Source: Planctomycetota bacterium | GTDB lineage: Bacteria > Planctomycetota > B15-G4 > JADJEK01 | DNA length: 52,219 nucleotides | Direction: 5' to 3' | Assembly: GCA_044225365.1 (NCBI GenBank) | Contig: JBGAIQ010000042.1 | Coordinates: 1 to 52,219 of the forward strand | In this document: positions 4,411-27,530 of the stretch, piece by piece | How positions within the stretch are numbered: the first letter of the stretch is position 1 | Layout: each line of letters starts with the position of its first letter | Translations under genes and position numbers: made by a program | The notes under the pieces: model-generated | Told to the model about the DNA's origin: nothing | What the model saw: only the letters and a program-made list of their open reading frames with translations | The model's database searches: none

Positions 4411-4597
4411 ACCGGACGCACCGGTTTCGGGGGGCGGACGTGGGGCAAAATGCTACGGCCCATTTCGCCCCGTGAACCCTGTTTTCACTTTCGGCGCGTT
4501 CGCCGAGAATGCATGCTGGCGAGTCACACCCTCGTCCGCTCGTGACGAACCACTCGGCTCATGGGCGAAGGAACGTGGAGTGTCCTGAGGACTCGCC

Positions 4598-5560: not shown

Positions 5561-5569
5561 GCGCGAGCG

Positions 5570-7231: not shown

Positions 7232-7237
7232 CGAACC

Positions 7238-9679
7238 TCAGTAAGAGCGACCCGTCAGGTGTTGGTCGAAGAATCGCTCGATTCGTCGGTACTCGTCGAG
7301 CCAGCTGTCCTTGTCCGTGAAGCCGTGATCCTGACTCGGATACAGCATCACTTCGAAGCTGTCCTTGCGCAACTTGATCAAGGCCTCCACCAGCCGGATC
7401 GTATCTTGCACGAAGACGTTGCTGTCCTTCAAACCATGCAACAAGAGTAGCGGTTTCTTCAAGCCATCGGCATGGTCAATCGGGGAGGATCGCTGGTAGT
7501 TCTCGGGATCCTTCTTGGGGTCGCCGAGGCGGGCGTTGGTGTACCAGGAGTTGTAGGTTCTCCAATCGGTCACCGAGCGCAACGCGCATCCGGCGGCGAA
7601 GCGATCCGGCTTGGTGAACAACGCCATGAGCGTCATGAACCCGCCGTAGCTCCCGCCGTAGACCCCGACCCGTTCCTTGTCGACGATCCCCTTCTCGGCC
7701 AGGAAATCGATCCCCGCGACGACGTCGTCGAGGTCCTTGCCTCCCATGAAGCCGTAGATGTCCGTCCGGAACTTGCGGCCGTAGCCCTGGGAGTGCCGGT
7801 AATCGGGATCGAGCACCACGTAGCCTTTGCGTGCGAGTCGCTGATGGAACAGGTAGTTGGGCTCGTAGGACGTCATCGAGCGCTTGACCTGCTGCAAATA
7901 TCCGGCGCCGTGCACGAAGATCACGAGGGGGTACTTCTTTGCCGGGTCGAACCCCGGCGGCTTGTAGAGGAAGGCCCGAACCTTCGTGCCGTCGGCCTTG
8001 TTCTCGTACTCGATGACCTCGGGGGGTGAGAGTCCGAGGGCCGCGAGTTCGGGCGGCTGCGTCGTCGTCAATCTCACCGGCGCGGCCGGGGCTTCGAGGC
8101 TCACGCTGTAGAACTCCGCCGGCACTCCTAGGAACTGCTGACGATAGACGAGTCTCGTGCCTCGGATGTTCGCTTGAGGGCTTTCCGCGACCCCTTCGGT
8201 CGAGGTGAGCGTGCGCCGCGTCGCGGACGCGCCGTCGACCAGGTCGATCGCGTAGTTCGCGGGGTCGGACTGGTTGTGGCCGATCAGGAAACGATCGCTG
8301 TGCTCCAGGCGGTCGATTTCGGCCACCTCGCCGCGATCCCCGGGCTTCGCTGGCGGAGTCAGGCAGCGCCGGTCCTTCCCATTCGCGGAGATACGGTAGA
8401 GCAGGTTGTAACCGCCGTCCTCCGACGTGAAGTACACGATGCTGCCATCGGCCGAGAGATCGGCGAATTGCGTCGGACCGCCGATCCACGCTTCGTCGCG
8501 CTCGGAGTGCACGAGAGTCGTGGTCTTGGTCGTGAGGTTGGCGAGCAGGAGCTGCCGGACGTGGAAGTCGTCGCTGACGCGGTCGAAGAGCAGGACGTCG
8601 GCGCACTCGGCGAAGACCGCGTTCGCGGTCCAGTACCGGCTACCGGCGTCGAGTGGGAGGTCGAGCGACTTCCCAGCGTTGAGGTCGAACAGATCGAAAT
8701 CGACCTTGGCCGCATGATCCCCGGGTAGCGAGCTGCGCACCGGCATCGTCGAGACGGTCTCGGACAGGAAGTCCGCGATGATGAGTTGCCGTGGATCGGC
8801 GCGGTCGAATCGCTCGCGCAGCGCGAATCCTCCCGTGGGGGAGAGCTGGACCTGACCGCCCTCCTCGAACTTCGTCTCCTTCGGCGGTTCGGACCCGTCG
8901 AGTTTCACGAGGTAGAGGACGCGCTTCTGCGGAGACGCGCGGCCTCCTCGTTCGTCGGGTTTCTCGCCCTCAGGATCATCCGAATCACTGGCATCGGGCT
9001 TTCCCTTCGCGGGCTCGGCCGGCGACTCCTTCGGGCCGTCCTTGCCCGAGTTCGACGGGTCGGCGAACACCGCGAGACGCTGCTCGTCGGGAAGCACGCG
9101 GAACCACTGCGCCCGATTCTTCAGATCGGAGATGGGCGTGCGGCGGGATCCGTCCTCCAGGTCGAGGATGTAGAGCTGGGCGTTGTCACCTGCCTGGAAA
9201 GCGATCCGCTTGTCGTCGCGGAACTGGAAGACCTCGCCCCCGCGTGAACCGATCTCGAAGATCGGCTTCACGGTGACGTTGCCGTCGGCGGCGACGAGGT
9301 GGCTCTCGAGCCAGCCGTCGCGCACGACGAAGAGTTCGCTTCCGCGGCGACTCCAGAAGGCGCGGACGTTGGTCTTACCGTCGAAGAGCCGCTTCGGTTC
9401 GCCACCCGCACTCTTCACCAGGAACGTCTCGTTCTCGGGTTTGTCGGAGTCCGACAGCGCGCGGCGATAGAGGACCCACTCGCCATCGGCGGAGATCGTG
9501 GCGCCCTGCGGTCGCGTTCCGAGGAGGCGCGGCGGCACGAAGATCTGCTCGAGCGTCGGGCGAACGTCGTCGACCACCGCGACTCGCGGCGCCGCGGTCG
9601 TCTGCGCGATCGCTGGATGTCCCGTGAGAACTGCGGCCGCAGCCGCGCAGAACCAACTCGGGATCACGGGAATTCGCAT
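7238..9679 (-). CDS. Secreted S9 (prolyl oligopeptidase/DPP-IV-like) serine peptidase
   Basis: Start trimmed to MRIPVIPSWFC, with a signal peptide ending AIA. Beta-propeller followed by an alpha/beta hydrolase: YPLVIFVHGAG, GGSYGG nucleophile, DSNV (Asp), QDHGF (His). Confidence 0.92.
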   Translation of the reverse strand: MRIPVIPSWFCAAAAAVLTGHPAIAQTTAAPRVAVVDDVRPTLEQIFVPPRLLGTRPQGATISADGEWVLYRRALSDSDKPENETFLVKSAGGEPKRLFDGKTNVRAFWSRRGSELFVVRDGWLESHLVAADGNVTVKPIFEIGSRGGEVFQFRDDKRIAFQAGDNAQLYILDLEDGSRRTPISDLKNRAQWFRVLPDEQRLAVFADPSNSGKDGPKESPAEPAKGKPDASDSDDPEGEKPDERGGRASPQKRVLYLVKLDGSEPPKETKFEEGGQVQLSPTGGFALRERFDRADPRQLIIADFLSETVSTMPVRSSLPGDHAAKVDFDLFDLNAGKSLDLPLDAGSRYWTANAVFAECADVLLFDRVSDDFHVRQLLLANLTTKTTTLVHSERDEAWIGGPTQFADLSADGSIVYFTSEDGGYNLLYRISANGKDRRCLTPPAKPGDRGEVAEIDRLEHSDRFLIGHNQSDPANYAIDLVDGASATRRTLTSTEGVAESPQANIRGTRLVYRQQFLGVPAEFYSVSLEAPAAPVRLTTTQPPELAALGLSPPEVIEYENKADGTKVRAFLYKPPGFDPAKKYPLVIFVHGAGYLQQVKRSMTSYEPNYLFHQRLARKGYVVLDPDYRHSQGYGRKFRTDIYGFMGGKDLDDVVAGIDFLAEKGIVDKERVGVYGGSYGGFMTLMALFTKPDRFAAGCALRSVTDWRTYNSWYTNARLGDPKKDPENYQRSSPIDHADGLKKPLLLLHGLKDSNVFVQDTIRLVEALIKLRKDSFEVMLYPSQDHGFTDKDSWLDEYRRIERFFDQHLTGRSY

Positions 9680-10281
9680 CGAGGATCTCCAGTCCGGGGA
9701 GGCGGAGCGGGCGGTTCCGAGGGGCCGAAGAACGGATCCTCGTGGCCGGCAGCAAGAGCGGCAGCGCGAGTCTGCCTGGCGAGTTCGGTGTAGCGCCCCG
9801 GGGTGCGCAGGATGCGCTCGATCTCGGCGTCCGTGAGGGATCGCTTCACGACGCCGGGGACTCCGACGACGAGGGATCGCTCGGGAACGATCATTCCTTC
9901 GCGGACGAGCGCGCCCGCGGCGATCAGCGAGAGTCGGCCAATGCGAGAGCCATCGAGAACCCGTGCGCCGATGCCGACGAGGACGTCGTCCTCGAGGATC
10001 GCGCCGTGGACCATCGCGCAGTGTCCGATCGAGACGCGCTTGCCGACGATCACAGGCCACTCCCCGAGGGTGCCGTGGAGGACGGCGCCGTCCTGGACGT
10101 TCGAGTTCTCGCCGATGCGGATCGAATGGACGTCGCCTCGGAGCACGGCGGAGTACCACACGGAGACGCCGTCCTCGAGGACGACGTCGCCGACGACCGA
10201 CGAGGTGGGCGCGAGGAAGACATCGCGCTGGAAGGTCGGATGGTGGCCACCATAGGGCAGGACGAGGGCACGCATGATCAC
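9664..10281 (-). CDS. Gamma carbonic anhydrase family (YrdA/PaaY-like) hexapeptide-repeat protein
   Basis: Motifs VVGDVVL, VLRGDVHSIRIGENSNVQDGAVLH and IGHCAMVHGA. Start may be 10275. Overlaps the S9 start. Confidence 0.9.
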   Translation of the reverse strand: MIMRALVLPYGGHHPTFQRDVFLAPTSSVVGDVVLEDGVSVWYSAVLRGDVHSIRIGENSNVQDGAVLHGTLGEWPVIVGKRVSIGHCAMVHGAILEDDVLVGIGARVLDGSRIGRLSLIAAGALVREGMIVPERSLVVGVPGVVKRSLTDAEIERILRTPGRYTELARQTRAAALAAGHEDPFFGPSEPPAPPPRTGDPRCEFP

Positions 10282-10356
10282 CGAACACGATACGCGGCGT
10301 GGGACAGGGCCGCGAGTCCCTTCCTGTCCTCCCGTACGGCGACCTCTTGCGTTCTG

Positions 10357-10399
10357 TCAGGAAACCGAGAATACTATTTGGGTTTCCATGGTTTCCTGA
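10357..10399. promoter_or_regulatory. Candidate TetR operator overlapping an AT-rich promoter
   Basis: GGAAACC(10360-66)-N14-GGTTTCC(10381-87), a second GGTTTCC at 10390-96, and a perfect 10-bp inverted pair TCAGGAAACC/GGTTTCCTGA. TACTAT at 10372-77. Ends 20 bp upstream of the tetR start. Confidence 0.55.
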
Positions 10400-10419
10400 T
10401 TCGAGTCGGATCGAGATCG

Positions 10420-11049
10420 ATGCAACGAAAGCGCGACGACGCCCGCCCGGAACCGTCTTCGGACCTCGAGCAGCGGATCCTTGCCTGCGCGCGGCGCCCA
10501 TTCTTCGAGATGGGCTTCTCCCGCGTGACGATGAGCGAGATCGCGACCGAGCTCGGGATCAGCAAGAAGACGCTCTACGCCGCCTTTGCGAGCAAGCTCG
10601 ACCTGCTCCGCGCGATGCTGTCCGCGAAGCTCCGCGCGATCGAGAGCGACATGCGCGAGATCGCGGACGAGGCGCAATCCGACTCCGTCCATGCGATCGA
10701 CGCGCTCCTCGAGTGCGTGAGTCGACACACCGGCGAGATCACGCCGCGCTTCCTTGCGGATCTGCAGCGAAACGCGCCATCGGTCCTGGTCTGGCTCGAC
10801 GAAAGACGGCGTGAGATCCTGCAACAGAACTTCGGGAAGATCCTCCGCGAGGGTCGCCGTGCAGGGACGATTCGCGATGACGTCTCGGTCGAACTCGTGA
10901 TCGAGGTGCTGCTCGCCGCCGCACACGCGATCACGTCGAGCCCGCGCATCACGGAACTCGGCATCACGCCGAAGACGGGATTCGCGCCGCTCGTTCGCAT
11001 CGTCGTCGAAGGCGTGTTGGTTCGTCCGTCGCGGGGGAAGGCGCGATGA
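10420..11049 (+). CDS. TetR/AcrR family transcriptional regulator
   Basis: HTH RILACARRPFFEMGFSRVTMSEIATELGISKKTLYAAFASK. Start trimmed to ATG 10420. Confidence 0.92.
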   Translation: MQRKRDDARPEPSSDLEQRILACARRPFFEMGFSRVTMSEIATELGISKKTLYAAFASKLDLLRAMLSAKLRAIESDMREIADEAQSDSVHAIDALLECVSRHTGEITPRFLADLQRNAPSVLVWLDERRREILQQNFGKILREGRRAGTIRDDVSVELVIEVLLAAAHAITSSPRITELGITPKTGFAPLVRIVVEGVLVRPSRGKAR

Positions 11050-12935: not shown

Positions 12936-14080
12936 CGCCTCGACCCGCGCGCGGGCTTTCGCTCGATCGCTTCCTCGCGATCGTCGTGAAGGAATTCATC
13001 CAGATGCGCCGCGATCGAATGACGTTCGGGATGATGATCGGGATTCCGATCATGCAACTCGTACTGTTCGGATTCGCGATCAACTCCGATCCCAGGAACC
13101 TGCCGACCGCCGTGTATCTCGAGGACCCGGGTCCCTTCGCTCGACGGGTGATGACGGCGCTCGAGCACACTCGTTACTTCCGGTTCACGCGAACGGTCGC
13201 GACGGAGCAGGAAGCGCGCGACGTGCTCGCTCGCGGTGAGGTGCAGTTCGTCGTGACGGTTCCCCGAGACTTCGATCGCACGCTGCTGCGGGGTGAACAT
13301 CCGCAGATCCTCGTCGAGGCCGATGCAACCGATCCGGCGGCGACGAGCGCCGCAGTCTCGGCGTTGCGAACGGCGGTCGAGACGGCGTTGGATCACGACA
13401 TCGATGGCCCCCTCGCGCACATTCGCGGTGAGGAGGGCCCCGTCCGCATCGAGGTCCACGCGCTCTACAACCCCGAAGGCATCACGCAGTACAACATCGT
13501 CTCGGGTCTGCTCGGCGTCGTGCTGACGCTGACGATGGTGCTGATCACGGCCCTCGCGATCACGCGGGAGCAGGAGAGCGGGACGCTCGAGAACCTGCTC
13601 GCGATGCCGACGAGACCACTCGAGGTGATGGTCGGAAAGATCGTGCCGTACGTATTCGTCGGCTACGTCCAGGTCAGCTTGATCCTGCTGATCGCCCATT
13701 ACGTGTTCCGGGTGCCGATCGTCGGGAGTCTGTCGCTTCTGCTCGCGGCGGCGCTGGTGTTCATCTTCGCGAATCTCGCGATGGGGATCACGTTCTCGAC
13801 GATCGCGAGGAATCAGCGCCAGGCGATGCAGATGGGAATGTTCTTCTTCCTGCCGTCGATGCTGCTGTCGGGCTTCATGTTTCCGTTTCGCGGAATGCCG
13901 ATCTGGGCGCAGCGCGTGGGGGAGATGTTTCCCCTGACGCCGTTCCTGCGCATCTGCCGTGGGATCCTGCTGAAGGGCAACGGCCCAAGCGATATCGCGC
14001 CGCACGTCGGCCAGATCGCGCTCTTCGCGGCGATCGCTCTCGCGATCGGCGTCACGCGCTACCGGCGAACGCTCGATTGA
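12932..14080 (+). CDS. ABC-2 type permease (YbhR/YbhS-like)
   Basis: Motifs KEFIQMRRDR, YNPEG, REQESGTLENLLAMP, GKIVPY and LLSGFMFP, plus multiple TM helices. Confidence 0.93.
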   Translation: MTPRPARGLSLDRFLAIVVKEFIQMRRDRMTFGMMIGIPIMQLVLFGFAINSDPRNLPTAVYLEDPGPFARRVMTALEHTRYFRFTRTVATEQEARDVLARGEVQFVVTVPRDFDRTLLRGEHPQILVEADATDPAATSAAVSALRTAVETALDHDIDGPLAHIRGEEGPVRIEVHALYNPEGITQYNIVSGLLGVVLTLTMVLITALAITREQESGTLENLLAMPTRPLEVMVGKIVPYVFVGYVQVSLILLIAHYVFRVPIVGSLSLLLAAALVFIFANLAMGITFSTIARNQRQAMQMGMFFFLPSMLLSGFMFPFRGMPIWAQRVGEMFPLTPFLRICRGILLKGNGPSDIAPHVGQIALFAAIALAIGVTRYRRTLD

Positions 14081-14137
14081 TCCCAATCACTCTTTGCCGC
14101 AGAGACCGTGGTCCTCCGTGGGAAATGATCTCGCTGG

Positions 14138-14626
14138 CGTCGAAGGACAGCCGCGCAGTTCGCTGCGGCGTTCCCGTGTTCAGGGATGGGGAACGATCCG
14201 GAATTTGCCACGGAGATTCACGGAGGTCAGATGAGGCCCACGGAGGGCATGAAGCATGAAAGGGGCCGCCTTCGGCATTCGGACCGCCGCGCTCCAGCGC
14301 GGCCACGCCAGCGCAGTCATCGTCGAAGGACCGCGGCGAGGCTCGCTGCGGCGTTCCCGTGTTCAGGGATGGGGAACGATCCGGAATTTGCCACGGAGGT
14401 TCACGGAGGTCAGAGGAGGCCACGGAGGGCATGAAGCATGAAAGGGGCCGCCTTCGGCATTCGGACCGCCGCGCTCCAGCGCGGCCACGCCAGCGCAGCC
14501 ACAGTTGAAGGACCGCCGCGCAGCTCGCTGCAGCGTTCCCGCGTTCGGTGATGGGTAATGATCCGGAGTTTGCCACAAAGGTTCACGGAGGTCAGAGGAG
14601 GCCACGGAGGGCATGAAGCATGAAAG
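14138..14626. repeat. ~182-bp tandem repeat, about 2.7 copies, containing REP-like hairpins
   Basis: GCATGAAGCATGAAAG recurs at 14247, 14429 and 14611. Units carry the hairpin GCCGCGCTCCAGCGCGGC and CACGGAGG sub-repeats. Confidence 0.9.
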
Positions 14627-14758
14627 TGCCTCGGCGGTCCAGGCGAACGCGAGTGCGAACGAGATTGCCTCGCGTGCGGCGGACGGCCCCTTTTGGAATC
14701 TCCGTTCTTCTCCTTCCTCCGTGGTCCTCCGTGGTCCTCCGTGGTCCTCCGTGTGAAA
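14569..14758. mobile_element. MITE/REPIN-like element, copy 1
   Basis: Left arm of CACGGAGG repeats faces a right arm (TCCTCCGTGG)x~4 at 14715-14758. The interior GAGATTGCCTCGCGTGCGGCGGACGGCCCCTTT is shared with copy 2. Confidence 0.55.
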
Positions 14759-14836
14759 CGAACGACTTCGTCCTCACGGACGTCCGCGCGGCTTGCTTCT
14801 GCATTCACGCGTGTACATGCGGGGAAAGATCCGGAG

Positions 14837-15011
14837 TTTTCCACGAAGGACCACGGAGGTCGGAGGAGGCCCACAGAGGTCAGGAAGTATGAATAGGGGC
14901 CGGCTCGGTGGTCCTGACGAATGCGGGCGCCAAGGAGATTGCGTCGCGGGCGGCGGATGGCCCCTTTGAAAGATCCGATCTTCTCCGACCTCCGTGGTCC
15001 TCGGGGGAAAA
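14837..15011. mobile_element. MITE/REPIN-like element, copy 2, with 32-bp imperfect terminal inverted repeats
   Basis: 14837-14868 (TTTTCCACGAAGGACCACGGAGGTCGGAGGAG) matches the reverse complement of 14980-15011 at 28/32 positions. No coding capacity. Confidence 0.65.
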
Positions 15012-15028
15012 TCGGGCGTTCGCGTCGT

Positions 15029-18000
15029 TCAAGGTTCGCGGCGGCGCGCGTCGAGGCGCGCGAGCTTGGCGACGAGCGTGAAGGACATCGGGACGAGGAA
15101 GATCGCAAGGCAGGTCGCCGCGAGCATTCCGCCGACGACCGCACTGCCGAGGATGCGGCGCGCCGCGGCGCCGGCACCCGTTGCGAACCACAGGGGCAGG
15201 CAGCCCAGGATGAATGCGAACGCCGTCATCAGGATCGGGCGGAAGCGGATCTTCGCTCCGGCGAGAGCGGCGTCGATCAAACTCGATCCACGCTCGAACT
15301 CCGCCTTGGCGAACTCCACGATCAAGATGGCGTTCTTCGCCGAGAGCCCGATCAACATCACGAGTCCGATCTGCGCGAACACGTCGTTCTCGAGATGGCG
15401 GTAGTGCAAGGCTGCGAATCCGCCGAGCGCGGCCACCGGGGTTCCGAGCAGAACGCTGAACGGCAATGACCAACTCTCGTACTGCGCGGCGAGGATGAGG
15501 AAGACGAACAGCAGGGAGAGCAGGAAGATCTGCGTCGCGGTCACGCCTTCCTGTGCGCGCTTCTCCTGGTAGGACATGCCCGAGTAATCGAAGCCCATGT
15601 CCTTCGGCATCGTCGCCGCGAATACTTCTTCGAGAGCATTCATCACGTCGCCCGAGCTGTAACCCGGAGCGGCATTGGCGTTGATCTGGGCCGCGCGATA
15701 CAGATTGTGCCGCATCGTGAACTCGGGACCGCTCGTCGGCCGCGACGTCACGAGCGACGCGAGCGGCACCGACTGACCCTGATCGTTCCGCACTGCGAAC
15801 TCCGCGACCTGATCGGCGCTCTTGCGATACTCGCCGTCCGCCTGCACGTAGACCTGCCACTGCCGGCCGAAGCGATTGAAGTAGTTCACGAACGATCCGC
15901 CCATGAACGTCTGCAAGGTGAGGTAGACGTTCGAGAGATCGATGCCCTGCTTCAGCACCTTGTCGCGATCGACGTCGAAGAACACCTGCGGAACGGCCGG
16001 TACCCACGGCGAACTGGCGCTCGCGATCTCCTTGCGCTTGCGGGCGGCCTCGAGGAACTTCTGCATGTTGTCGCCGAGGAACGGAACGTCGTGTCCGCCC
16101 CGATCCTCGAGGACGAAGGTGACACCGCCCGCGGTGCCGACGCCGGGGATCTGCGGCGGTGAGAATGCGAACGCCGCCGCGCCCGAGAGTTTCCCGAGCT
16201 CGCGGGTGATGTGCGCCTTGATCGCATCGAGCTGCTCCTCCGGTTTCTTGCGATCCTCCCAGTTCTTCAAGTTGACGAACGAGAACCCGGCGTAGGTCAT
16301 TCGCGCGCCGCCCGACACCAGGTTGAGTCCACCGACCGTCGTCGCGTGGAGGACGCCCGGCGTGTGCAGGAGGATGTCGGCGAGCTGCTGGCACACGGCG
16401 TCGGTTCGCTGCATCGACGAGTCGTTCGGCAACGTCGCCTGGACGTAGAGGTAGCCCTGATCCTCCTCCGGCAGGAAGCTGGTCGGCAGCTTCTTCCCGT
16501 AGAAGACGGCGAGGGCGGAGAGGCCGGCGAGGAGGATCACTCCGATGAAGCTCTTCCGCACCAGCCCGCCCGCTAGAGCGACGTAGCCCCTCGTCGCCGC
16601 GCCGAACGATTTGTTGAACAGACCGAATAGGAAGGCGATCGGTCCGCGCGAGGGTTTGCGCGGCTTCAGGAGCAGCGCGGCCAGGGCCGGACTGAGGCTG
16701 AGTGCGTTGAACGCCGAGAGGATCACCGAGATCGCGATGGTGACCGCGAATTGCTGATAGAGGCGCCCCGTGATCCCGGGGATGAAGATCGTCGGCACGA
16801 ACACCGCGGAGAGGATCAGTGCGATCGCAATGACCGGACTCGCGACCTCCGACATCGCCTTGATCGCGGCGTCGCGAGGCGACAGACCCTTCTCGATGTG
16901 GTGCTCGACGGCTTCGACGACCACGATCGCATCGTCGACGACGAGTCCGATCGCGAGCACGAGACCGAACAGCGACAGCGTGTTGATCGAGAACCCGAGC
17001 AGGGGGAAGACCGCGAACGTTCCGATCAGCGACACGGGCACCGCGAGCAGCGGGATCAGCGTCGCGCGCCAATTCTGCAGGAACAGGAACACGACGAGGA
17101 TCACGAGGCCGATCGCTTCGAGCAGCGTGTTCACGATCTCGTGCATGCCCTGCGTCACGGCTTGCGTCGTATCGAGGGAGATCGCGTAATCGAGGTCCTC
17201 GGGAAAGGTGGGCTTCAGATCGGCCATCAACTGCTTCGCGCCGTTCGCGGCGTCGAGCGCATTGCTACCGGGGAGCTGGTAGATCGCGAGGATCGCCGAC
17301 GGCTTGCCGTCGAGTCGGCCCTTCAACGCGTAGCCCTGCGCTCCGAGTTCGACGCGCGCGACGTCGGAGAGGCGGACGATCGCGCCGTCGGAATTCGCGC
17401 GCACCACGATGTTGCCGAATTCCTCGGGCGTGCTGAGTCGTCCCTTCGCGCGAGCGGAGTACGTGAAGTCCTGACCAGCGGGCATCGGCTCACCGCCGAT
17501 CTGCCCCGACGGATTCACGGTGTTCTGCGCTTTGATCGCGGCGACGATCTCGGGGACCGTGATGTCGAGCTTCGAGAGCAGATCGGGCTTCACCCAGCAG
17601 CGCATCGCGTACTGATCGGCGCCGAAGATCAACGCCTGACTGATTCCCTTCACGCGCGTGATCGGATCGATCAGGTGGATGTATCCATAGTTCGCGAGGA
17701 ACGTAGGATCGTACGATCCCTTCGGCGAGTACAGCGCGATCAGCATGAGTGGCGCGGAGTACGACTTGTTCACGATGACGCCGAAGTTGCGAACGTCGAC
17801 CGGGAGTTGCGCCTGGGCCTGCGCCTGGCGGATCTGCGTCAGCACCTGATCGGTGTTCGGATCCGTCTTCACGTCGAAGTTGACGCGCAAGCGCATCGTG
17901 CCCGCGTTCGAGTTCAGCGAGTACATGTACGCGAGGTTGTCGACACCGCTCATCTGCTGTTCGAGCGGAGTGGCGACGGAGCTCTCGATCGTTTCGGAGT

Positions 18001-18157
18001 CCGCGCCGACGAACGTGGTGTCGATCACGATCTCCGGCGGGACGATGTTCGGGAACTGCGCGACAGGGAGCCCGACGACCGAGACCGCCCCGACGAGCAC
18101 GAGGAGGATCGAGATCACCATCGCGACGATCGGGCGGTCGATGAAGAAGCGACTCAT
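15029..18157 (-). CDS. RND efflux transporter permease (HAE1/AcrB family)
   Basis: 1042 aa. [17 protein letters not shown] start, proton-relay motifs [23 protein letters not shown] and RFRPILMT. Confidence 0.96.
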
Positions 18158-18167
18158 GACGCGCTCC

Positions 18168-19373
18168 TCACTTCGTCCCGGACTTGCTGTCGGCGGCCGC
18201 GGCCTGCGGATCCACGTACGGCTGCGGACTCACGACCGCGCCCGCAGCGGCCTTCTGGAAGCCCTCGACGACGACGAGGTCGTCCGCGGCGAGTCCGCTC
18301 GCGATGAGGCGCATCGAACCCACGCGATCTCCCGGCACGACGTACTTGAAGGCGAGCTTGTTGCCCTCGGTCACCGTTGCGACGCGGTACTTTCCCTGCA
18401 GATCGCCGACGGCGCGATCGGGGACGAGGAAGGCGTCCTTCCGCGTCTCCGCCGCCCAGCGCACTTTCACGAACTGGCCCGGGCGCAGCACATTGTTCGG
18501 ATTGTCGAAGAGCACGACCCCGCGAATCGTTCCGGTCTTCGGGTCGATGCTGCGATCGACGAACGCGAATCGTCCACGATGGGCATAGCTGCGCCCGTCG
18601 GCGAGCACGAGATCGAAGTCGTCCGGTCGTTGATCTTGCGGCGTGCCCTCGAGGACCTTCAGGGTTTCGCCAAGCGCGAGATACTGTTGCTCGGCGAGCG
18701 GGAAGTAGGCACGGATCGGATCGACCGTCGACATGGTCGCGAGCGGCGTGGTCGCCGAGACGAGGTCTCCGATCTGCGCTTCGGCGATGCCCACGATGCC
18801 GTCGATCGGTGCGAGGATGCGCGTGTGGGCGAGGTCGATCTTCGCTTGCTCGACGACGGACTCCTGCATCTTGACCGCGGCCTTCAGCGACAGATTGGCC
18901 TGCACCGCGGCGTCGAGCGATGCCTGCGTCTCCGCCTGTTCGGGGACGAGCGGCTCGATGCGCTTGACGTCGAGATCGGCCTTCACCTGATCCGCTCTCG
19001 CCTTCTCGAGTTCGCTCTTCGCGTGATCGAGCGCGACGGAGTACGAGTCCGCTTCGATCTCGAAGAGCGGGTCGCCGGCCTTCACGAACGAGCCGTCGCG
19101 ATAGTCCTGACGCCGGAGGTAGCCGCTGACTTGCGCACGGATTCGCGCGTTCGACGAACCATCGAGGCTGCCGACCCATTCGCGAACGAGGGGGACGTCG
19201 CGAATGACGATGTGCGTGACGAGGACCGTCGGCGGCGGGGGAGGCGAGCTCACGGTGGCGGCCGCCTGGCCTTCGAGTCTGTCGCACGCCGCGATCGCGA
19301 GCAATGCGGCGCCGACCGCGATGGCCAGGAGGATCCGCGCGATCCCATGACGGTATCGGTTCGACGGGTTCAT
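18168..19373 (-). CDS. RND periplasmic adaptor (AcrA-like MFP), lipoprotein
   Basis: Start trimmed to MNPSNRY. Lipobox IAAC. Motifs [37 protein letters not shown] and VVEGFQK. Confidence 0.93.
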
Positions 19374-19645
19374 GATGCTTCTCCCGGCGGGTTCGAATCC
19401 CGTCGCTTCGAGCCGCAGAGCGCGGCCTTTCGCAGACGTGGATCGATCGCGTCCGCGATCGACATCAGCGACTTGACGTCGGTGGCGACGAGGCAGTTCA
19501 CCTCGCATTCGTTCAGCTCGAACCCGTCGCGCCCTTCGGCGATGAGCGCTCGAAGCGTGGGCGCGGGAGCGGCGGCGAACTGCTGCAAGAAGGCCTCGTC
19601 CGTGACGAGGCGGCCGATCACTCTTTCGACATCACGTTGGCACAT
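19370..19645 (-). CDS. Small NHLP-clan (Os1348-like) protein, 91 aa
   Basis: [31 protein letters not shown]...FELNECE...IDPRL resembles the nitrile-hydratase-leader-peptide pattern (xxxDxxFRxxxxxDP). AGGAG RBS 8 nt upstream. ATGA overlap with the MFP start. Confidence 0.75.
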
Positions 19646-19754
19646 TGGCGGCACTCCTGCGCGCTCCGGCCCATGCGACCGACCGCGCCTTCTTTCCCCA
19701 AGCACAGGCGTGCCGCGAGCGGGAAGGGGGATTCGTGCTAGAAAATCGTGCAAA

Positions 19755-19772
19755 GTGTCCGGATTCGGACAC
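19755..19772. promoter_or_regulatory. Candidate enhancer (UAS) for the adjacent sigma54 activator
   Basis: Near-perfect palindrome GTGTCCGGATTCGGACAC (TGT-N10-ACA) in the divergent intergenic region, about 110 bp upstream of the small ORF. Confidence 0.55.
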
Positions 19773-19806
19773 CTCGTACCGGGCACCCGGCAGGAACCTT
19801 CCGTCG

Positions 19807-21447
19807 ATGAAGAATCCGGGCATTCGCGCCGAAGGCGATCTCACCCCGCTTCCGACCTCCCGAGAGATCGGGAATCTGCGCCGGTTGCAGCGGCTCGACT
19901 CGCTGCTCCCGGCTCTCGCCGCCGCGCTCGACCTTCGAACGGTGTTCGAGCGCGTCTCGGAGCTCGCCCGCGAAGTGCTGCCGCACGATCGTCTCTCGCT
20001 CGGCCTCATCGACGAGGCGCGATCGACATTCGTGCTCCACGCCGCCGCGGGAGATCGCTGGCTCGCCGTTCCCGATCTCCATCCGATCCAGTCGATCGTG
20101 TTGCCCGAGGAACCGTGGGTCTACGAGATCTTCGCCGACATCCAGGCGAAGGACAGTCCGTTCCTCGCCCTCCGAGACCCGTCGCAGAGCGGCGATCTCC
20201 ATGCGCTCCTGCGAGTTCCGATCCATCTCGAGGGAAAGCTCGTCGGGACCGTGAACTTCGTGTCGCGCGAGGTCGGCGCGTACGACGAGGACGACGTTCT
20301 CGTCGCCTCGCGGATCCGCGATCATCTCGCGCTCGCGTTGTCGCACTGGCGGCTCGCGGAAGAATCGCGCAAGGCCGAGATCGAACGCGAGCGCGCCGCC
20401 GTGGCGGAGGAACGCGTTCGGTCGTTGACCGAACAACTCGCCGCGGTCGGCGGGCGCAATCGAGCGCTCGGCGAATCGCCGGCGTTTCGGGACGTCCTGT
20501 CCCAGGCGACGAAGGTCGCGAGCGCACCGACCACGGTGTTGATCACGGGCGAATCGGGCACCGGCAAGGAAGTGCTCGCGCGGTTCATCCATCGCGCATC
20601 GGCGCGGCCGGACGGGCCCTTCATCGCCATCAACTGCGCGGCGCTACCCGAGACGCTCCTCGAGTCGGAACTCTTCGGCTTCGAGAAGGGCGCGTTCTCC
20701 GGCGCGACGGCGAGCAAGCCCGGTCGCATCGAAGAGGCCGCCGGGGGCGTGCTCTTCCTCGACGAGATCGGGGAGATGAGTCTCACCGTGCAGGCGAAGT
20801 TGCTGCGTTTCTTGCAGGAGCGCGAGTTCCAACGCCTCGGGTCGACGCGACTCCAGAAGGCCGACGTGCGAGTGATCACGGCGACGAATCGGGATCTCAA
20901 ACTCGCGACGGAGCGTGGAGCGTTCCGCGAGGACCTCTTCTATCGAGTCTCCGTGTTCGAGATCCGCGTTCCTCCGCTACGAGCACGCGGTGATGACGTG
21001 CTGCTGCTCGCCGACGCGTTCCTGAAGGACATTGCGCGTTCGCTCGGACGGCCGGCGGCAGGGATCTCGGTCGATGCACGGGAGCGGCTCCTCGGCTATC
21101 GCTGGCCGGGGAACGTGCGAGAGCTGCACAACGTGTTGGAGCGCGCGTCGATCCTCTGTGAAGGCGGCCTGATCACGAGCGAGCATCTCGCGATACCGGC
21201 TCCGTCCGTCGTGCCCGCCGTCCTCGCCGCATCGCCGAATCCGGCCACGATCGCGTCGTCTCCCTTCGCGGCTTCGCGCGGCGACGATCTCCTCGCACTC
21301 GAGCGAGCGACGATCGAGCGCGTCCTCATCGAGTCGCGTTTCAACAAATCTCGAGCGGCGAAGCGACTCGGGATCAGTCGCGGTCAGCTCTACTCGAAGC
21401 TCGAGAAGCACGGACTCGACTCCAGGATCGATCCCGAATCGAAATGA
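19807..21447 (+). CDS. Sigma54-dependent enhancer-binding protein (GAF + AAA+ + Fis HTH)
   Basis: N-terminal GAF-like region, [47 protein letters not shown] and [20 protein letters not shown]. Start trimmed to ATG 19807. Confidence 0.93.
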
Positions 21448-21483
21448 AAAGGCGCCGCGGACTCTTGGCAGTCCAACGGCGCC
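21442..21483 (-). terminator. Probable intrinsic terminator of sod, in the convergent gap
   Basis: GGCGCCG...GGACT-loop-AGTCC...CGGCGCC hairpin (21451-21483) followed by TTTTCATTT on the minus strand. Confidence 0.55.
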
Positions 21484-21506
21484 ACCCTGCTTCGTCGCGT
21501 TATGTC

Positions 21507-22097
21507 TCAGCCGAGGCGTCGATCGCAAACGGACCAGTCGACGTTCGACAGGAAGGCCTCGATGTACTTCGCCTTGTCGGCCGGCTTGTAGTCGACCATG
21601 AAAGCGTGCTCCCACATGTCGAGCACCATCACGGGACGGAACCCAGCGGGATGACCGATCTCGTGCTCGGTGATCCAGTGGTTCGTGAGCTGGCCGTTCG
21701 ACGGATCCTGATACGTGATGACCCAGCCGATTCCGCGCATCGTCGCGTTGCTCGTGAGCGCCTTCTTGTAGGCCTCGAATCCGCCGAAGCACTCGATCAC
21801 CTTCTTGCCGAATCCCGAGCCCTCCGAGAACGCCTTCGGGCTCTTCGAGAGGTTGCCGAAGTAGAGCTCATGCAGGATCTTCCCGTTGTACTCCCAACCA
21901 GCGCGGCGCTTCAGTTCGGCCCAGATCGGCGTGCCGGCCTTGCCGTCGGCCTCGAGCTGCGAGAGCGTGTCGTTCAAGGTGTTGGTATTCGCGACGTAGC
22001 CGGCGTAGAGCTTGAAATGCACCGCGAGCTGGGCGTCGGAGATCCCATTCAGGCCCGAGAGGTCGAACGTCAGCTCTGGATACTTCTGGATCGGCAT
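21507..22097 (-). CDS. Fe/Mn superoxide dismutase (ChrC/SodF-like type)
   Basis: Metal-ligand motifs HFKLYAGYV, LHELYF and DMWEHAF. GGAGG RBS before MPIQKY. Confidence 0.9.
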   Translation of the reverse strand: MPIQKYPELTFDLSGLNGISDAQLAVHFKLYAGYVANTNTLNDTLSQLEADGKAGTPIWAELKRRAGWEYNGKILHELYFGNLSKSPKAFSEGSGFGKKVIECFGGFEAYKKALTSNATMRGIGWVITYQDPSNGQLTNHWITEHEIGHPAGFRPVMVLDMWEHAFMVDYKPADKAKYIEAFLSNVDWSVCDRRLG

Positions 22098-22275
22098 CGC
22101 TGCCTCCTTCGTTGTGATTGAGTTCTTGTCGATTCGTGCGTCGATCGGTTCGATTCTGATCGCGCGCTGCGTCCGACGCAAGCATTCAGGTCGCGACGCT
22201 CGACCGGATGGATAGCACGGCTACCACGGGGCGAGGATTCGCTACGCTCGGTCACCCTCGAATTGGAGCGAGCCC

Positions 22276-22938
22276 ATGCCTTCGAAAGCGAAAGTCGCAG
22301 TGATCCTGTCCGGTTGTGGCGTCTACGACGGCGCCGAGATCCACGAGTCGGTTCTCACGCTCCTCGCGCTCGATCGGCGCGATTGCGAGATCGTGTGCGC
22401 CGCTCCGAACGTCGCTCAGATGCACGTGGTCGACCACTCGACCGGCAAGGAGATGGCGGAGCAACGCAACGTCCTGGTCGAAGCGGCGCGCATCGCGCGC
22501 GGCAAGATCCGTGATCTGAAGACTCTGCGCGCGAGCGACGTCGACGCCGTCGTCCTGCCCGGCGGATTCGGTGCGGCGAAGAACCTCTGCGATTTCGGCA
22601 AGGGCGGCGCCGACTACTCGATCGAGCCGGAGACCGCGCGCTTCCTGAAGGAGATGCATGGAGCGAAGAAGCCGATCGCGGCGCTGTGCATCGCTCCGGC
22701 GATCGTCGCAAAGGTGCTCGGCCGCGAGCACGTGACGCTCACGATCGGGAACGAGAAGGACACCGCGGCGCGACTCGAGCACGCGGGATCGAAGCACCAG
22801 GTCGCGCGGGTCGACGAGATCGTCGTCGATGAGAGGAACCGGGTCGTCACGACTCCGTGCTACATGTACGACGCGCGCATCGGCGAGGTGTGGGGCGGCA
22901 TCGAGAAGGCCGTGAACGCGTTGCTCGAACTTCTCTAA
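22276..22938 (+). CDS. elbB: Glyoxalase ElbB (ES1/DJ-1 superfamily)
   Basis: Motifs VAVILSGCGVYDGAEIHE, RNVLVEAARIARG, PGGFGAAKNL, CIAP and VTTPCYM. Confidence 0.93.
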   Translation: MPSKAKVAVILSGCGVYDGAEIHESVLTLLALDRRDCEIVCAAPNVAQMHVVDHSTGKEMAEQRNVLVEAARIARGKIRDLKTLRASDVDAVVLPGGFGAAKNLCDFGKGGADYSIEPETARFLKEMHGAKKPIAALCIAPAIVAKVLGREHVTLTIGNEKDTAARLEHAGSKHQVARVDEIVVDERNRVVTTPCYMYDARIGEVWGGIEKAVNALLELL

Positions 22939-24288: not shown

Positions 24289-27200
24289 ATGCGCAAGCCG
24301 CTCGTGATCGGCGGAGCTCTCATCGGGCTCTTCGCCGTGGTGCTGTTCCTGTTGTTCCATTCGCTCTCGGGCGCTCCCGACGCGGTGTCGGTCGAGCGCG
24401 CAAAGGCACCCGATACGCCGGCACCCGAGGCGCCGAAGGTCGCCGAGGAAGTCGCCCCCGCGCGCGAGACGATCGCCGCGGCGGAGAAGCCGGCCGCTCT
24501 CGAAGCCCCCCCGGTATACGCCAAATTCCTTGGTGGGGTGAAGGGCCGGCTCGTCGAGCAGGACGGCACTCCGGTGCCCGGCACTCGCATCGACGCGCTC
24601 ACGATCAACATCGAAGAGCTCTTTCCGCAGTTGGATTCGATGTTCTCGGACGAGCCCATCGACTTCCAGGAAGTGAAGGGCACCACGAAGACGAAGGACG
24701 ACGGCACGTTTCTCTTCGAGAAGCTCGAGCCGCGTTCCATCTACGTCCTCGGCGTCGATCCCGTCGGTCCGCGTTCGACCGTTCGCATGGTCGACAAGGC
24801 GCCCAATGCCGGCGAAGTCGTCGACCTCGGCGACGTGGTGCTCGATCCGTTCGTCATCTTCACGGGCCGCGTCGTCGACAAGCGCGGCACTCCGATCGCC
24901 GATGCGCGGGTACGGGCGTCGAATCTGCCTTCGATCGCATTCCAGTTCGGCGTGCAGGACCTGAAGCCCGGATTCTCCGTGGCGTTCCAGGAGAACTTCC
25001 GCGGCAGCGAGGAGTGGCGCGTGGCGCGCGTTCCGACCTGGGCGTTCCGTTTGCTCGAGAAAGTGCCGCTGCCGCAGACCAAGACGAAGGAAGACGGCTC
25101 GTTCCGACTCGAGGGCGTGCCCACCGGGCTGGCGACCGTGCTCGTCGACCACGACGGATTCCTTTCGCTCACGCACGGACCGGTGTCGACGTCGAACGTG
25201 AAGGAGAAGGAACTCGGCACTCTGAAGCTCGACGACGGCGAGACGATGACGGGTATCGTGGTCGACGCCAGTGATCAGCCGATCGCAGAGGCCGAGGTCC
25301 TCGCGGGTCCGATCCAGGATCTCGCGCCGGTCGCATTGATGGTGCCCGTCGGCAAGACCGACGCGTCCGGCCACTTCACCGCAAAGGGTCTGCGAGACGT
25401 CGATCACGCGGTGGCCGCGCGAACCAAGACCGGAGTGGAATGGACGCTCGTGAAGGGCATCACTCCCGGCTACGACGAAGCGAAGATCGTCCTCGGCGAT
25501 ACCTTTCAGGTCGAGGTCACGGCGCTCGCCGACGGCGGGATGATCGCAAGACCTCAACTCGTCGTGCAGCGCAAGAACGAGCTGCCACTGCATCCCTTGC
25601 TCGTGCCGCCGATCCCGCTCGGTGGCCGTCTGCGCTACACCGACAAGGGCACCGCGATCGTCTCCGACCTCGCGAAGGGCAAGTATTCGTTGCTCGTTCG
25701 CGGTCCCGGGTACGCGGCGTCCCAGGTCGAGGCGGATCTCACGAAGGGTTCGACCAGCGTCGTCGCCGAACTCGAGAAGGAGTTCACGGCGAAAGTGACG
25801 GTCGTCGAGAAAGGCACGAAGACCCCAGTGTGGTGGGCGACCGTGGGCATCTTCGCCGACGATTCGGGAGACGGTGAATCACGTCGCAATCGCGACACGC
25901 AGGCGATCCCGCTCGCGAACAAGCGCACGGGCGAGGACGGCATCGTCACGGTCAACGGCCTGAAGAAGGGCAAGTACAAGGTCGTCGTGCTGCATCCGGG
26001 TTACGCGGAGACGTTCTCCAGTCTCGAGGCGCCAGGTGAGCCCGTCGTCGTCGAACTGCCGGCGGGCGGATCGCTCGCGGGTCGCGTCCATGAGAAGGGC
26101 CAGCCACCGAATCCCGACCGCTTCATCGGAATGGGACTGTCGGGTCGAGGCGAAGGCTTCCCGCGATTCAACGTCACCGACAAGGACGGCAACTTCCATA
26201 TCACGCACCTCGCACCCGGCGAGTATCAACTCGTCGTGATGCGGCGCTTCGCGAATCAGGGCCTCGGTGAACTCGTCGACGGCGCTGCGAAGCAGAGCTA
26301 CTTCCCCGAGCGCTTCGAGAGCGTGACGATCGAGGAGGGCAAGGAGGCCGTCCTCGACATCGATCTGCTCGGGGTCGACGCCGACGCGCCGACCGCGAAG
26401 CTCTCGGGTCGCTGCATCATCAACGGCCGGCCCGCCGGCGGCGTCCCGCTGCGCTACAACGTGAACTCCTCGGCGGGCGACGCAGCCTCGCGCAATCGGC
26501 CGCGTAATCCCCGCGCGATGATGGCGCGGATGAAGAGCACGATCACGAACGAGAACGGAACCTTCGACTTCGGCGACGTCGTCGCGGGAGATGGTTCGAT
26601 CGAAGTGAGCCAGCCCGGCGAGAAGGGCGGCATGAATTTCGGGCGTATCGCTCGCGTCAAGGTGCAGACCGCCGCGAACGACAACAGAGAAATATCGATC
26701 GATCTGAAGGTTGGCGCGATCCACGGTCGCGTGCTCGCCGATCGAACCGGCCAGCCCCTCGCCTTGGCCGAACTCCGGCTGCATGTCGAACCGCAGCCGC
26801 CCAAGCCCGGAGAGTCCGCCAACGCAGTTTCGTTCGGCGATTGGAACGCCGACGTCCGCATGAACGAGATCACCGACAAGGACGGGCGATTCCATTTCGA
26901 TTACGTGCCCGCAGGGCGATACGAGATCAACGTGGATCGCAAGGACTACGCCGCGGCCAAGGTCGGCGGAATCGTAGTGCCGGCGAATGGCGACGCGCCC
27001 GACGTCGATGTGCGCCTCATGACCGGGGTCACGGTCCGTGGCAAGATCGTTCTCCCGCCGGCTGCGCCGGGCGAGGACGCCGACAATCGCAGGTTTGCGT
27101 TCATCTCGTTCAACGGCCGCGATGGTCAGGTCGGGAACAACGGCTCGCGGGTCGACACCGAGAAATGGACGTTCGAGGCGAAGGAGCTGATGCCCGGCAA

Positions 27201-27342
27201 GTACGACGTGAACTGTTGGACCGGCAATCAGAGTCTGAAGCCGCTTCAGATCGACGTACCGAGTCAAGGCCTCGACAACGTGACGCTCACCTTCGAGGCG
27301 ATGCCGCCGCCCGAGCCGCCGAAGGCGCCCGGTTCGAAGTGA
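24289..27342 (+). CDS. Membrane-anchored carboxypeptidase-regulatory-like (transthyretin-fold) repeat protein
   Basis: N-terminal TM anchor, Pro/Ala linker, repeated GRVVDxxGxPIxxAxV...TxxDGxFxxxxxxxGxY units. Confidence 0.8.
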   Translation: MRKPLVIGGALIGLFAVVLFLLFHSLSGAPDAVSVERAKAPDTPAPEAPKVAEEVAPARETIAAAEKPAALEAPPVYAKFLGGVKGRLVEQDGTPVPGTRIDALTINIEELFPQLDSMFSDEPIDFQEVKGTTKTKDDGTFLFEKLEPRSIYVLGVDPVGPRSTVRMVDKAPNAGEVVDLGDVVLDPFVIFTGRVVDKRGTPIADARVRASNLPSIAFQFGVQDLKPGFSVAFQENFRGSEEWRVARVPTWAFRLLEKVPLPQTKTKEDGSFRLEGVPTGLATVLVDHDGFLSLTHGPVSTSNVKEKELGTLKLDDGETMTGIVVDASDQPIAEAEVLAGPIQDLAPVALMVPVGKTDASGHFTAKGLRDVDHAVAARTKTGVEWTLVKGITPGYDEAKIVLGDTFQVEVTALADGGMIARPQLVVQRKNELPLHPLLVPPIPLGGRLRYTDKGTAIVSDLAKGKYSLLVRGPGYAASQVEADLTKGSTSVVAELEKEFTAKVTVVEKGTKTPVWWATVGIFADDSGDGESRRNRDTQAIPLANKRTGEDGIVTVNGLKKGKYKVVVLHPGYAETFSSLEAPGEPVVVELPAGGSLAGRVHEKGQPPNPDRFIGMGLSGRGEGFPRFNVTDKDGNFHITHLAPGEYQLVVMRRFANQGLGELVDGAAKQSYFPERFESVTIEEGKEAVLDIDLLGVDADAPTAKLSGRCIINGRPAGGVPLRYNVNSSAGDAASRNRPRNPRAMMARMKSTITNENGTFDFGDVVAGDGSIEVSQPGEKGGMNFGRIARVKVQTAANDNREISIDLKVGAIHGRVLADRTGQPLALAELRLHVEPQPPKPGESANAVSFGDWNADVRMNEITDKDGRFHFDYVPAGRYEINVDRKDYAAAKVGGIVVPANGDAPDVDVRLMTGVTVRGKIVLPPAAPGEDADNRRFAFISFNGRDGQVGNNGSRVDTEKWTFEAKELMPGKYDVNCWTGNQSLKPLQIDVPSQGLDNVTLTFEAMPPPEPPKAPGSK

Positions 27343-27371
27343 GTCCGTCTCTTGCGTGGTCGCACAATTCA

Positions 27372-27445
27372 CCGGGGCGCACGCCTGTGCGCCCGGTTTG
27401 GCGCACCGCAAACGCCACGACGGGCAGACAGCCGTCTGCCCCTAC
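27372..27445. repeat. GTAG-type REP doublet
   Basis: Hairpin GGGCGCAC-GCCT-GTGCGCCC, then the inverted copy GGGCAGAC-AGCC-GTCTGCCCCTAC (reverse complement starts GTAGGGGC). A third degenerate GTAGGGGGCG starts at 27488. Confidence 0.65.
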
Positions 27446-27530
27446 ACGACCCACGATTCTTTGCTGAATGCGCTTCTCGCGGTTGACGTAGGGGGCGCGT
27501 CGGTGGTGGGCACCCTCGACGGAGCGACGC

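Follow-up and report, generated by a model that had tools for sequence, protein, structure and literature searches.

Introduction

What does a small protein that resembles the leader of a ribosomally made peptide with post-translational modifications (RiPP) do at the head of an efflux operon? The question is raised by a stretch of 52,219 nucleotides from a Planctomycetota bacterium (assembly GCA_044225365.1, contig JBGAIQ010000042.1, positions 1 to 52,219), which we refer to as the window. A first-pass annotation, made from the sequence alone, had described a 91-residue open reading frame (ORF) related to the nitrile hydratase leader peptide (NHLP) clan, which is mostly made up of RiPP leaders. 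The ORF precedes genes for a resistance-nodulation-division (RND) pump and diverges from a gene for a sigma54 activator. A pump accessory, a metal or redox sensor, a regulator of the activator and a cargo were proposed as possible roles.

The analysis reported here identifies the small ORF as a real gene, which encodes a stand-alone NHLP/Os1348-type leader domain without a core peptide. The gene very probably belongs to a conserved module, in which this protein is combined with a dedicated activator and a sigma54 promoter, and in which the pump is interchangeable. With regard to function, we give a probability of roughly 45% to the reading that the core-less domain is a cytoplasmic protein-binding modulator, or an output, of this dedicated sigma54 circuit. 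The cognate activator is a possible, but distinctly less probable, specific binding partner, a role that we infer for it from the linkage of the two genes.

Results

The small gene (19370-19645, minus strand) is the first gene of its operon. A Shine-Dalgarno sequence, AGGAG, is present on the same strand at 19654-19658, 8 nt 5' of the ATG. The TGA stop codon and the ATG of the next gene share an ATGA overlap. This next gene (18168-19373, minus strand) encodes a 401-residue RND periplasmic adaptor, or membrane fusion protein (MFP), which is a lipoprotein (TIGR01730, 236 bits) with the lipobox LAIAAC in its translation. Ten bases past it starts the gene for a 1042-residue RND permease of the HAE-1 / RND_permease_1 type (15029-18157, minus strand; NF000282, 1243 bits; TIGR00915, 1101 bits; PF00873, 1033 bits). 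The operon therefore has the structure that the first-pass annotation had assigned to it, an ORF with its own ribosome-binding site overlapping the MFP start, followed by the permease gene, and both pump genes have profile support.

The small protein matched NF038399 (Os1348 family NHLP clan protein) with 56.9 bits (E 1.6e-15, cut-off 40). In the protein the match runs from residue 4 to residue 71, and in the 63-position model from position 1 to position 62; it is far beyond chance. A search with the same model across the genome gave 56.7 bits for the small protein. Membership of the NHLP clan, until then a suspicion, is confirmed by this score above the curated cut-off. Scores remained below the cut-offs of other leader models (TIGR04509, 21.2 vs. 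34; TIGR03798, 13.8 vs. 32.3). The match to PF14407 (Frankia_peptide; 35.6 bits, E 1.1e-8) was under the gathering score of 48, although homologs are assigned to PF14407 in the precomputed table of the protein collection.

An AlphaFold2 model of the small protein, built with 37 aligned homologs (mean pLDDT 81.9), contains five helices within residues 3-66, is all-helical over residues 1-71, and ends in a disordered tail of 15-20 residues from about residue 72. Its top structural match is the Os1348 crystal structure 6LK7 (Foldseek probability 1.00, TM-score 0.60-0.72). VIA gave Z 7.0 over 75 residues for 6LK7 and Z 4.5 for the next match, and a comparison of the sequence profile with 6lk7 gave E 2.9e-5 at a profile identity of about 21-24%. 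The lower VIA matches (Z 3.0-4.5) include LigA/DesB and three leader-domain structures, borosin SonA, the Nif11 leader of MppE and a proteusin precursor (Z 3.0-4.1). They are suggestive of the NHLP-type helical clan, and we do not use them as proof.

High-GC DNA gives many spurious ORFs, and a non-functional ORF or a chance adjacency therefore had to be considered. This explanation is refuted by the E value of the NF038399 match, by the number of clusters that match the subfamily profile (see below), and by the conservation of position and linkage, and we regard its probability as negligible.

A word-indexed search returned 95 homologs, 62 of which are 78-79 residues long. The alignment comprises 37 of the 95, chosen by hand so as to cover all levels of identity. 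In an exhaustive search with the profile, 1153 clusters of representatives (at 50% identity) were recovered at E <= 1e-3, and 419 at E <= 1e-10. The subfamily is mostly acidobacterial, and the small gene together with the activator was found in many bacteria from soil and sludge. In 68 of 94 homologs, the last conserved motif (AIDPRLQK) is followed by only 8-9 residues. A GG is present in 58 of the 94 homologs in which the closing motif was located, and it is followed by 2 (48 proteins), 3 (9) or 5 (1) residues that are variable in sequence. Neither the window protein nor P0002, a relative with 80% identity to it, has the GG, and both end in a non-conserved tail of 14 residues. A stretch of about 15 or more residues after GG/GA, as expected of a core peptide, is found neither in the 58 homologs with a GG nor in the window. 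Since most members have just 2-3 residues after the GG, we conclude that there is no core peptide. The earlier statement that the window ORF has no obvious core or GG cleavage site is thus correct, and the proposed role as cargo is unlikely because most members end 2-3 residues after the domain.

Enzymes that could modify a peptide were sought at the module and around its relatives. YcaO, Lan, C39 and adjacent radical SAM genes were not found at the window module, and the other 28 called ORFs, which cover the window to the left and right of the module, yielded no GNAT, HEXXH peptidase or SagB-type dehydrogenase. Around the relatives, 14 long loci gave 76 called ORFs, of which 48, the longer ones, were scanned against Pfam, as were 20 hand-picked ORFs of nine loci, three of which turned out to be outer-membrane factors of the pump. 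None of the scanned neighbours matched YcaO, Lan, radical SAM, C39, ATP-grasp, GNAT, HEXXH or SagB families. The remaining flanks differ from locus to locus. The claim that no maturase is adjacent therefore holds for the window module and for the scanned neighbours of the subfamily relatives. A different picture emerged from nine NF038399 loci of the same phylum outside the subfamily, at which 50 of 77 called ORFs were scanned. Three of them adjoin genes for B12-binding radical SAM proteins, frequently with several copies of the precursor; two are beside genes for an alpha/beta hydrolase and a tetratricopeptide repeat protein; and four were uninformative.

These data bear on the explanation that the small protein is after all a RiPP precursor or cargo, modified by enzymes encoded elsewhere and exported through the pump. 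The composition of the clan and the three loci with B12-dependent radical SAM genes speak for it. So does a radical SAM/SPASM gene in the window (4598-5557), the nearest to the small gene, but it is 14 kb away, beyond unrelated operons, and stays under all NCBIfam cut-offs. The lack of maturase families among the scanned neighbours, the missing C39 transporter, the 2-3 variable residues past the GG in most members and the unconserved tail of the window protein speak against it. Moreover, RND pumps are, to our knowledge, not known to export folded proteins of 8-10 kDa. Altogether, we consider this explanation very improbable.

As a separate observation, the radical SAM/SPASM gene of the window is part of a gene set (3025-10501) in which it adjoins genes for a DUF4394 protein, glycosyltransferases and a 1087-residue S9 peptidase with a weak match to the lasso-peptide isopeptidase Atxe2. 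Possibly a peptide-modification cluster in its own right, the set is separated from the small gene by 14 kb and is missing at the loci of the relatives.

The small protein is soluble and acidic (pI 5.07, GRAVY -0.17; subfamily median pI 5.4). No signal peptide, transmembrane segment or hydrophobic stretch is present in its sequence, and it lacks a transmembrane helix of the kind found in AcrZ, YajC and MexG. The four cysteines that had been counted in the 91-residue ORF were found at positions 2, 47, 51 and 77. C47 is present in 23 of the 37 aligned relatives, each of the others in 3-6 of 37, and neither Cys nor His forms a conserved cluster in the aligned relatives. A metal or redox sensor, one of the roles first proposed, is unlikely in a thiol-based form, because none of the four cysteines is conserved. 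The residues that are invariant across the alignment (V6, E7, I10-D16, F23, L44, E48, L52 and P69) are the fold signature of the clan, which is shared with nitrile hydratase alpha.

In rare natural fusions the domain is N-terminal to a universal stress protein (P0196, P0211), an alpha/beta hydrolase (P0098) or a LuxR-type helix-turn-helix (HTH) domain (P0099). These fusions show that the domain is a stable intracellular module. A search for longer homologs revealed no fusion of the domain to a bacterial enhancer-binding protein, a weak indication since only 8000 candidates were scored.

The universal stress protein fusions would fit an independent stress effector, that is, a protective or signalling protein (for example a ligand- or protein-binding sponge) which is co-induced with the pump by a stimulus that the GAF activator senses. 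Against this idea, no ligand-binding family or motif was detected in the small protein, conserved clusters of Cys or His are lacking, and its invariant residues are the fold signature of the clan.

The genomic context of the relatives was analyzed in contigs scanned for the peptide VERVIGRLV, which gave 13 confirmed genome loci and 52 metagenome loci (L067, a 16-residue match, was dropped). With three further loci from a search of the phylum, the total was 67 loci, which form 44 clusters at 90% identity. Linkage to neighbours was determined by tblastn, and outer-membrane factor, MFP and RND genes all counted as pump genes. Of the 37 clusters whose downstream flank is 400 nt or longer, 33 have a pump gene as the immediate downstream neighbour on the same strand; L005, the L031-37 group, L051 and L099 do not. 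In many loci a gene for an outer-membrane factor (PF02321) separates the small gene from the MFP gene. Of the 18 clusters with an upstream flank of 2.5 kb or more, 16 have the activator gene upstream on the same strand, and the gene also appears in 14 of the 26 clusters with shorter flanks. The two exceptions among the 18 are L003, whose contig carries the activator 9.3 kb upstream, and L012, with a convergent activator downstream. The neighbouring activators of the relatives are 44-71% identical to that of the window from GAF to HTH, and a divergent activator, as in the window, was seen in none of the relatives examined. Together with the sample of 201 genomes described below, these clusters establish the conserved linkage to RND pump and enhancer-binding protein genes on which the first-pass proposal depended.

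The proximity of the pump genes speaks for a role as pump accessory. According to this explanation, the small protein would be a cytoplasmic RND helper in assembly, gating or substrate hand-over, kept in a fixed ratio by translational coupling. Besides the pump gene that directly follows in most clusters, start/stop overlaps of four bases with the next gene are found in the window, L052 and L059, and at L107 tblastn puts the MFP start 6 nt inside the end of the small gene. Small RND accessory proteins do exist (AcrZ, YajC and MexG). They are membrane proteins, whereas the small protein is soluble, acidic and without a hydrophobic segment.

Two observations on the arrangement of individual modules are added here. 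Loci L013 and L014, two contigs of one metagenome-assembled genome, carry two near-identical whole modules of activator, small gene, outer-membrane factor, MFP and RND, either a true duplication or an assembly duplicate. Loci L031-L037, which have a lower GC content, contain the activator gene, then genes for an F420-type oxidoreductase, a nitroreductase, a short-chain dehydrogenase/reductase and SnoaL-like proteins, and then the gene for a small protein of 85 residues, with no pump within 1.8 kb downstream.

Which of the two partners is the constant one was determined in 201 genomes of the class that holds the genome of L003. The small gene (profile, E <= 1e-10) is present in 32 of these genomes and the activator GAF region (profile, E <= 1e-15) in 33, with both in 32, as a descriptive count. 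The single genome with the activator only, G489, has no small gene even at E <= 0.01. Copy numbers roughly match: two loci of each are found in G511, G543 and G551, and three of each in G599. Departures are G479 (two small genes, activator on three contigs) and G475 (two small genes, one activator). About a third of the carriers have the small gene on one contig and the activator on another.

The pump behaves differently. An RND of the L052 type (at least 74% identity) is present in 68 of the 201 genomes, 21 with the small gene and 47 without it, and 11 carriers of the small gene have no such RND. Four of the 68 genomes (G407, G538, G578 and G582), none with the small gene, are flagged as unpublished; their exclusion leaves 64 of 197. 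At least four RND lineages with mutual identity of 33% or less are found behind the small gene, namely the L052 type, the L097 type, the L107 type and the RND_permease_1 type of the window. The L052-type RNDs are 76-87% identical among themselves and score as NF033617/PRK09579. With the RNDs encoded after the small gene in relatives, the window RND shares only 29-32% identity, and the genome of the window has no ortholog of the common L052-type pump, the best match being the window RND itself at 32%. The order of outer-membrane factor, MFP and RND genes in relatives had suggested a heavy-metal (CzcCBA-like) pump; this candidate was rejected, as RND_permease_2/PRK09579 scored 1124-1138 bits vs. 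317 for CusA/CzcA.

Sixteen further loci add to the variety. Ten have the small gene followed by outer-membrane factor, MFP and RND (L097 type) genes, with the activator unlinked. In two, genes for an MFP and an RND (L052 type) come first, followed by the activator gene and, after it, by the small gene with an outer-membrane factor gene; at one of these, L121, the outer-membrane factor gene is followed by genes for an MFP and an L107-type RND. One is arranged activator-small gene-MFP-RND. In the remaining three (L116-118), a sigma54-type promoter precedes the small gene, which forms a monocistronic unit, and the gene downstream of it is convergent. At L005, too, the small gene is not followed by a pump.

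The constant pair is therefore the activator and the small protein, and the pump is interchangeable and able to exist without the small gene. The activator is the tighter partner, because pump lineages swap and because 47 of 68 genomes with the common pump have no small gene. An obligatory helper of the pump would hardly be expected to be attached to four lineages of 33% identity or less, to be dispensable for orthologs of the common pump, or to occur in monocistronic and pump-less copies. In view of this, a role as pump accessory appears unlikely. The monocistronic copies driven by sigma54, and the fact that the small protein is the most constant output of the circuit, speak for an independent stress effector; with the protein features reported above, we would still give this explanation low odds.

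The window activator (19807-21447, plus strand, 546 residues) diverges from the operon across a spacer of 161 bp. Its Pfam domains are GAF, Sigma54_activat (PF00158, 233 bits), AAA_lid_14 and HTH_8 (42 bits). From GAF to HTH it is 50-58% identical to the activators adjoining the small genes of relatives. These are about 690-770 residues long and GAF-GAF proteins, whereas the window activator has a single GAF domain, and the sigma54-contact loop reads GAFSGA in the window and GAFTGA in the relatives. The spacer contains a 16-bp palindrome, TGTCCGAATCCGGACA (TGTCCG-AATC-CGGACA), at 19756-19771, the predicted binding site (upstream activating sequence) of the activator. In 17 loci of relatives, a palindrome TGTCGA-N4-TCGACA is located 145-190 nt 5' of the small gene; the window palindrome, at -126, has the same TGTC-N8-GACA layout. 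The divergent GAF-AAA-Fis activator with a palindrome in between, as first described, is accordingly present.

A sigma54-type promoter is a regular feature of the relatives. Of 64 upstream regions, 50 contain the element TGGCAC-N5-TTG(G/A) at a distance of 28-147 nt from the ATG, and five more have a TGGCAG variant that keeps GG-N10-GC. In the window, the sole -24/-12-like element upstream of the small gene is cGGCACG-cctg-TGCT (19701-19715, minus strand), a GG-N9-GC arrangement that is one base short of the canonical GG-N10-GC. With a matrix built from the promoters of the relatives, the best window score was 1.9, compared to 17.8-29.2 for 38 of 40 distinct sites (4.8 and 10.9 for the other two). 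The gene rpoN is present in the genome of the window. The spacing, the low matrix score, the divergent orientation, the single GAF domain and the GAFSGA loop together mark the window copy as a derived, atypical member of the module, for which sigma54 dependence is at most a prediction.

Many relatives have an additional sequence element, a half-site pair TGTCGA...N17...TTCG(A/T)C, at a fixed position 45-51 nt 5' of the ATG of the small gene and past the sigma54 promoter (L003, L004, L006, L010, L011, L013, L018, L020, L023, L025, L026, L028, L038, L044 and L052). The pair reuses the half-site of the upstream palindrome, is absent from the window, and may be a second activator site or a repressor site. 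RNAalifold found no consensus structure for the conserved motif of the 5' untranslated region in 14 relatives. An Rfam scan of the 5' regions of ten loci, including the start of the window operon, found no riboswitch or known RNA except Acido-Lenti-1 (RF01687) in L029. These matches, at 1228-1338 of L029, are on both strands (39.4 and 36.0 bits; gathering score 37) and lie a few hundred bases 5' of the small gene.

Other features of the window

The window operon contains no gene for an outer-membrane factor. The position of this gene in related operons is occupied in the window by a non-coding stretch of about 950 bp (14055-15010), which extends from an ABC-2 permease gene to the stop codon of the RND gene. 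It consists of three to four tandem units of about 182 nt and many inverted repeats built on CCGTGGTCCTCCGTGG-like words, and looks like an array of REP/MITE-like elements. A scan of 14000-21600 for sigma70 promoters and terminators found no promoter-like site and a single terminator-like site, within the MFP gene, which is fewer than in shuffled sequences. The composition profile showed no GC anomaly across the module. The window DNA is present only in DNA runs from bioreactor or sludge metagenomes, and no RNA run is among those listed.

Directly past the activator gene (21510-22935) are genes for an Fe/Mn superoxide dismutase (minus strand) and an ElbB-type glyoxalase of the DJ-1 family (316 bits). 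Both are oxidative or electrophile stress genes and are not kept at the loci of the relatives. Further on (24289-30701), two neighbouring genes encode proteins of about 1000 residues that are built of CarboxypepD_reg-like repeats.

Discussion

The protein family described here is already known: it is curated, and the structure of its founder has been solved. The founder of NF038399 is Os1348 of Pseudomonas sp. Os17 (PDB 6LK7; PMC7726476), whose comma-shaped, multi-helix domain is a homodimer in the crystal. Os1348 and the small protein belong to the same curated family, have the same fold, and are both soluble proteins of about 80-90 residues. In both cases an RND pump is encoded next to the small gene, and for Os1348 a functional link to the pump has been reported (PMC7726476). 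The differences are equally clear. Genes for a GNAT, a HEXXH peptidase and a SagB-type protein follow the Os1348 gene, which is under Gac/Rsm control; in the window there are no such enzymes, and a dedicated sigma54 activator is present. The EmhABC pump that neighbours Os1348 is conserved without Os1348 (PMC7726476), while in the window the small gene is the first cistron of the pump operon. The enzyme genes beside Os1348, and its raised level in an RND mutant, are the points from this system that count in favour of a RiPP precursor.

Similar comparisons can be made with the leaders of NHLP, Nif11, proteusin and borosin type (TIGR03793, TIGR03798, TIGR04509, PF14407). These share with the small protein the signature I/V..x..TDxxF..DP and the helical fold, and the window's relatives have a vestigial GG near the C-terminus. 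Unlike these leaders, the small protein has no core peptide, maturase or C39 transporter, and it scores under the cut-offs of their models.

Small proteins, or products of first genes, are known to modulate their sigma54 activators in the pairs HycA-FhlA, PspA-PspF and HrpV-HrpS. What these have in common with the module is logic only: the first gene of a sigma54 operon, beside a GAF activator, with the two co-inherited. The small protein had no Pfam or NCBIfam match to the HycA, PspA or HrpV families and no relation to them in sequence or fold was seen, so that the likeness is an analogy of logic. Another small protein, ArmR, modulates the efflux regulator MexR, but acts on a repressor of the MarR type. 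ArmR and the accessory proteins AcrZ, YajC and MexG resemble the small protein in that they are encoded with, or control, an RND pump; the accessory proteins are membrane proteins, and the small protein has no hydrophobic segment.

On this basis, the following mechanism can be envisaged. The GAF-type enhancer-binding protein would bind the TGTC-N8-GACA palindrome and fire the -24/-12 promoter. The small protein would be the first, and at times the only, gene product behind this promoter, and its gene would usually be coupled translationally to a tripartite RND pump of interchangeable lineage. The small protein itself would be a cytoplasmic protein-binding adaptor that tunes the circuit, and neither a RiPP precursor nor an obligatory subunit of the pump. 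The fold acts as a protein-binding adaptor in RiPP leaders, in nitrile hydratase alpha and in LigA. In the form that we favour, the small protein would feed back on its cognate activator, as in HycA-FhlA or ArmR-MexR, with a sign of the effect that is itself a prediction.

Several points weigh against a modulator of the sigma54 circuit. Binding of the small protein to any partner is a prediction from linkage, and co-occurrence of activator and small gene would also be expected from the plain linkage of a regulator and its target, for which no binding is required. The sampled genomes are related, so that the counts given for them are descriptive, not independent, and not a statistical test. The gene calls in the loci come from a crude GC3-based script. 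The recurrent start/stop overlaps are typical of subunits of one complex, and such translational coupling to the pump favours a pump-related role. The window copy has no sigma54 promoter of canonical spacing, has one GAF domain and is divergent, and its module may differ from that of the relatives or be in decay. Finally, deletion of the RND gene next to Os1348 raised the cellular level of Os1348, which the authors read as a sign of export (PMC7726476).

A complex prediction for the full-length activator and the small protein, made with their own alignments, gave a score of 0.29 against a mark of 0.32 and is taken neither as support for binding nor as an argument against it.

A more specific and decidedly tentative possibility is that the RiPP leader fold has been exapted. 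The domain would then be a trans-acting anti-activator or co-activator of a GAF-GAF sigma54 activator and part of a portable cassette that, in Acidobacteriota as well as neighbouring phyla, has come to stand before four or more unrelated RND pumps. Evolution may also have run the other way, with such regulators as the ancestral form which gave rise to the NHLP-type RiPP leaders.

In the literature searched (bioRxiv supplements and papers without a CC licence being outside its scope), we found no description of a subfamily without core peptide that is associated with sigma54 activators and RND pumps, and none of RND efflux regulation by a sigma54 activator together with a small co-inherited protein. 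For the Acidobacteriota, which are poorly studied, the module is a candidate for a novel type of cassette that regulates RND pumps. The core-less subfamily also offers another reading of the raised Os1348 level after RND loss (PMC7726476). Beyond this system, NHLP/Nif11-clan domains serve genome-mining tools as flags for RiPP clusters. If the core-less subfamily, which comprises hundreds of clusters at 50% identity, were annotated as RiPP precursors, the error would be systematic. The subfamily is a testable case of a leader fold that acts as a stand-alone protein.

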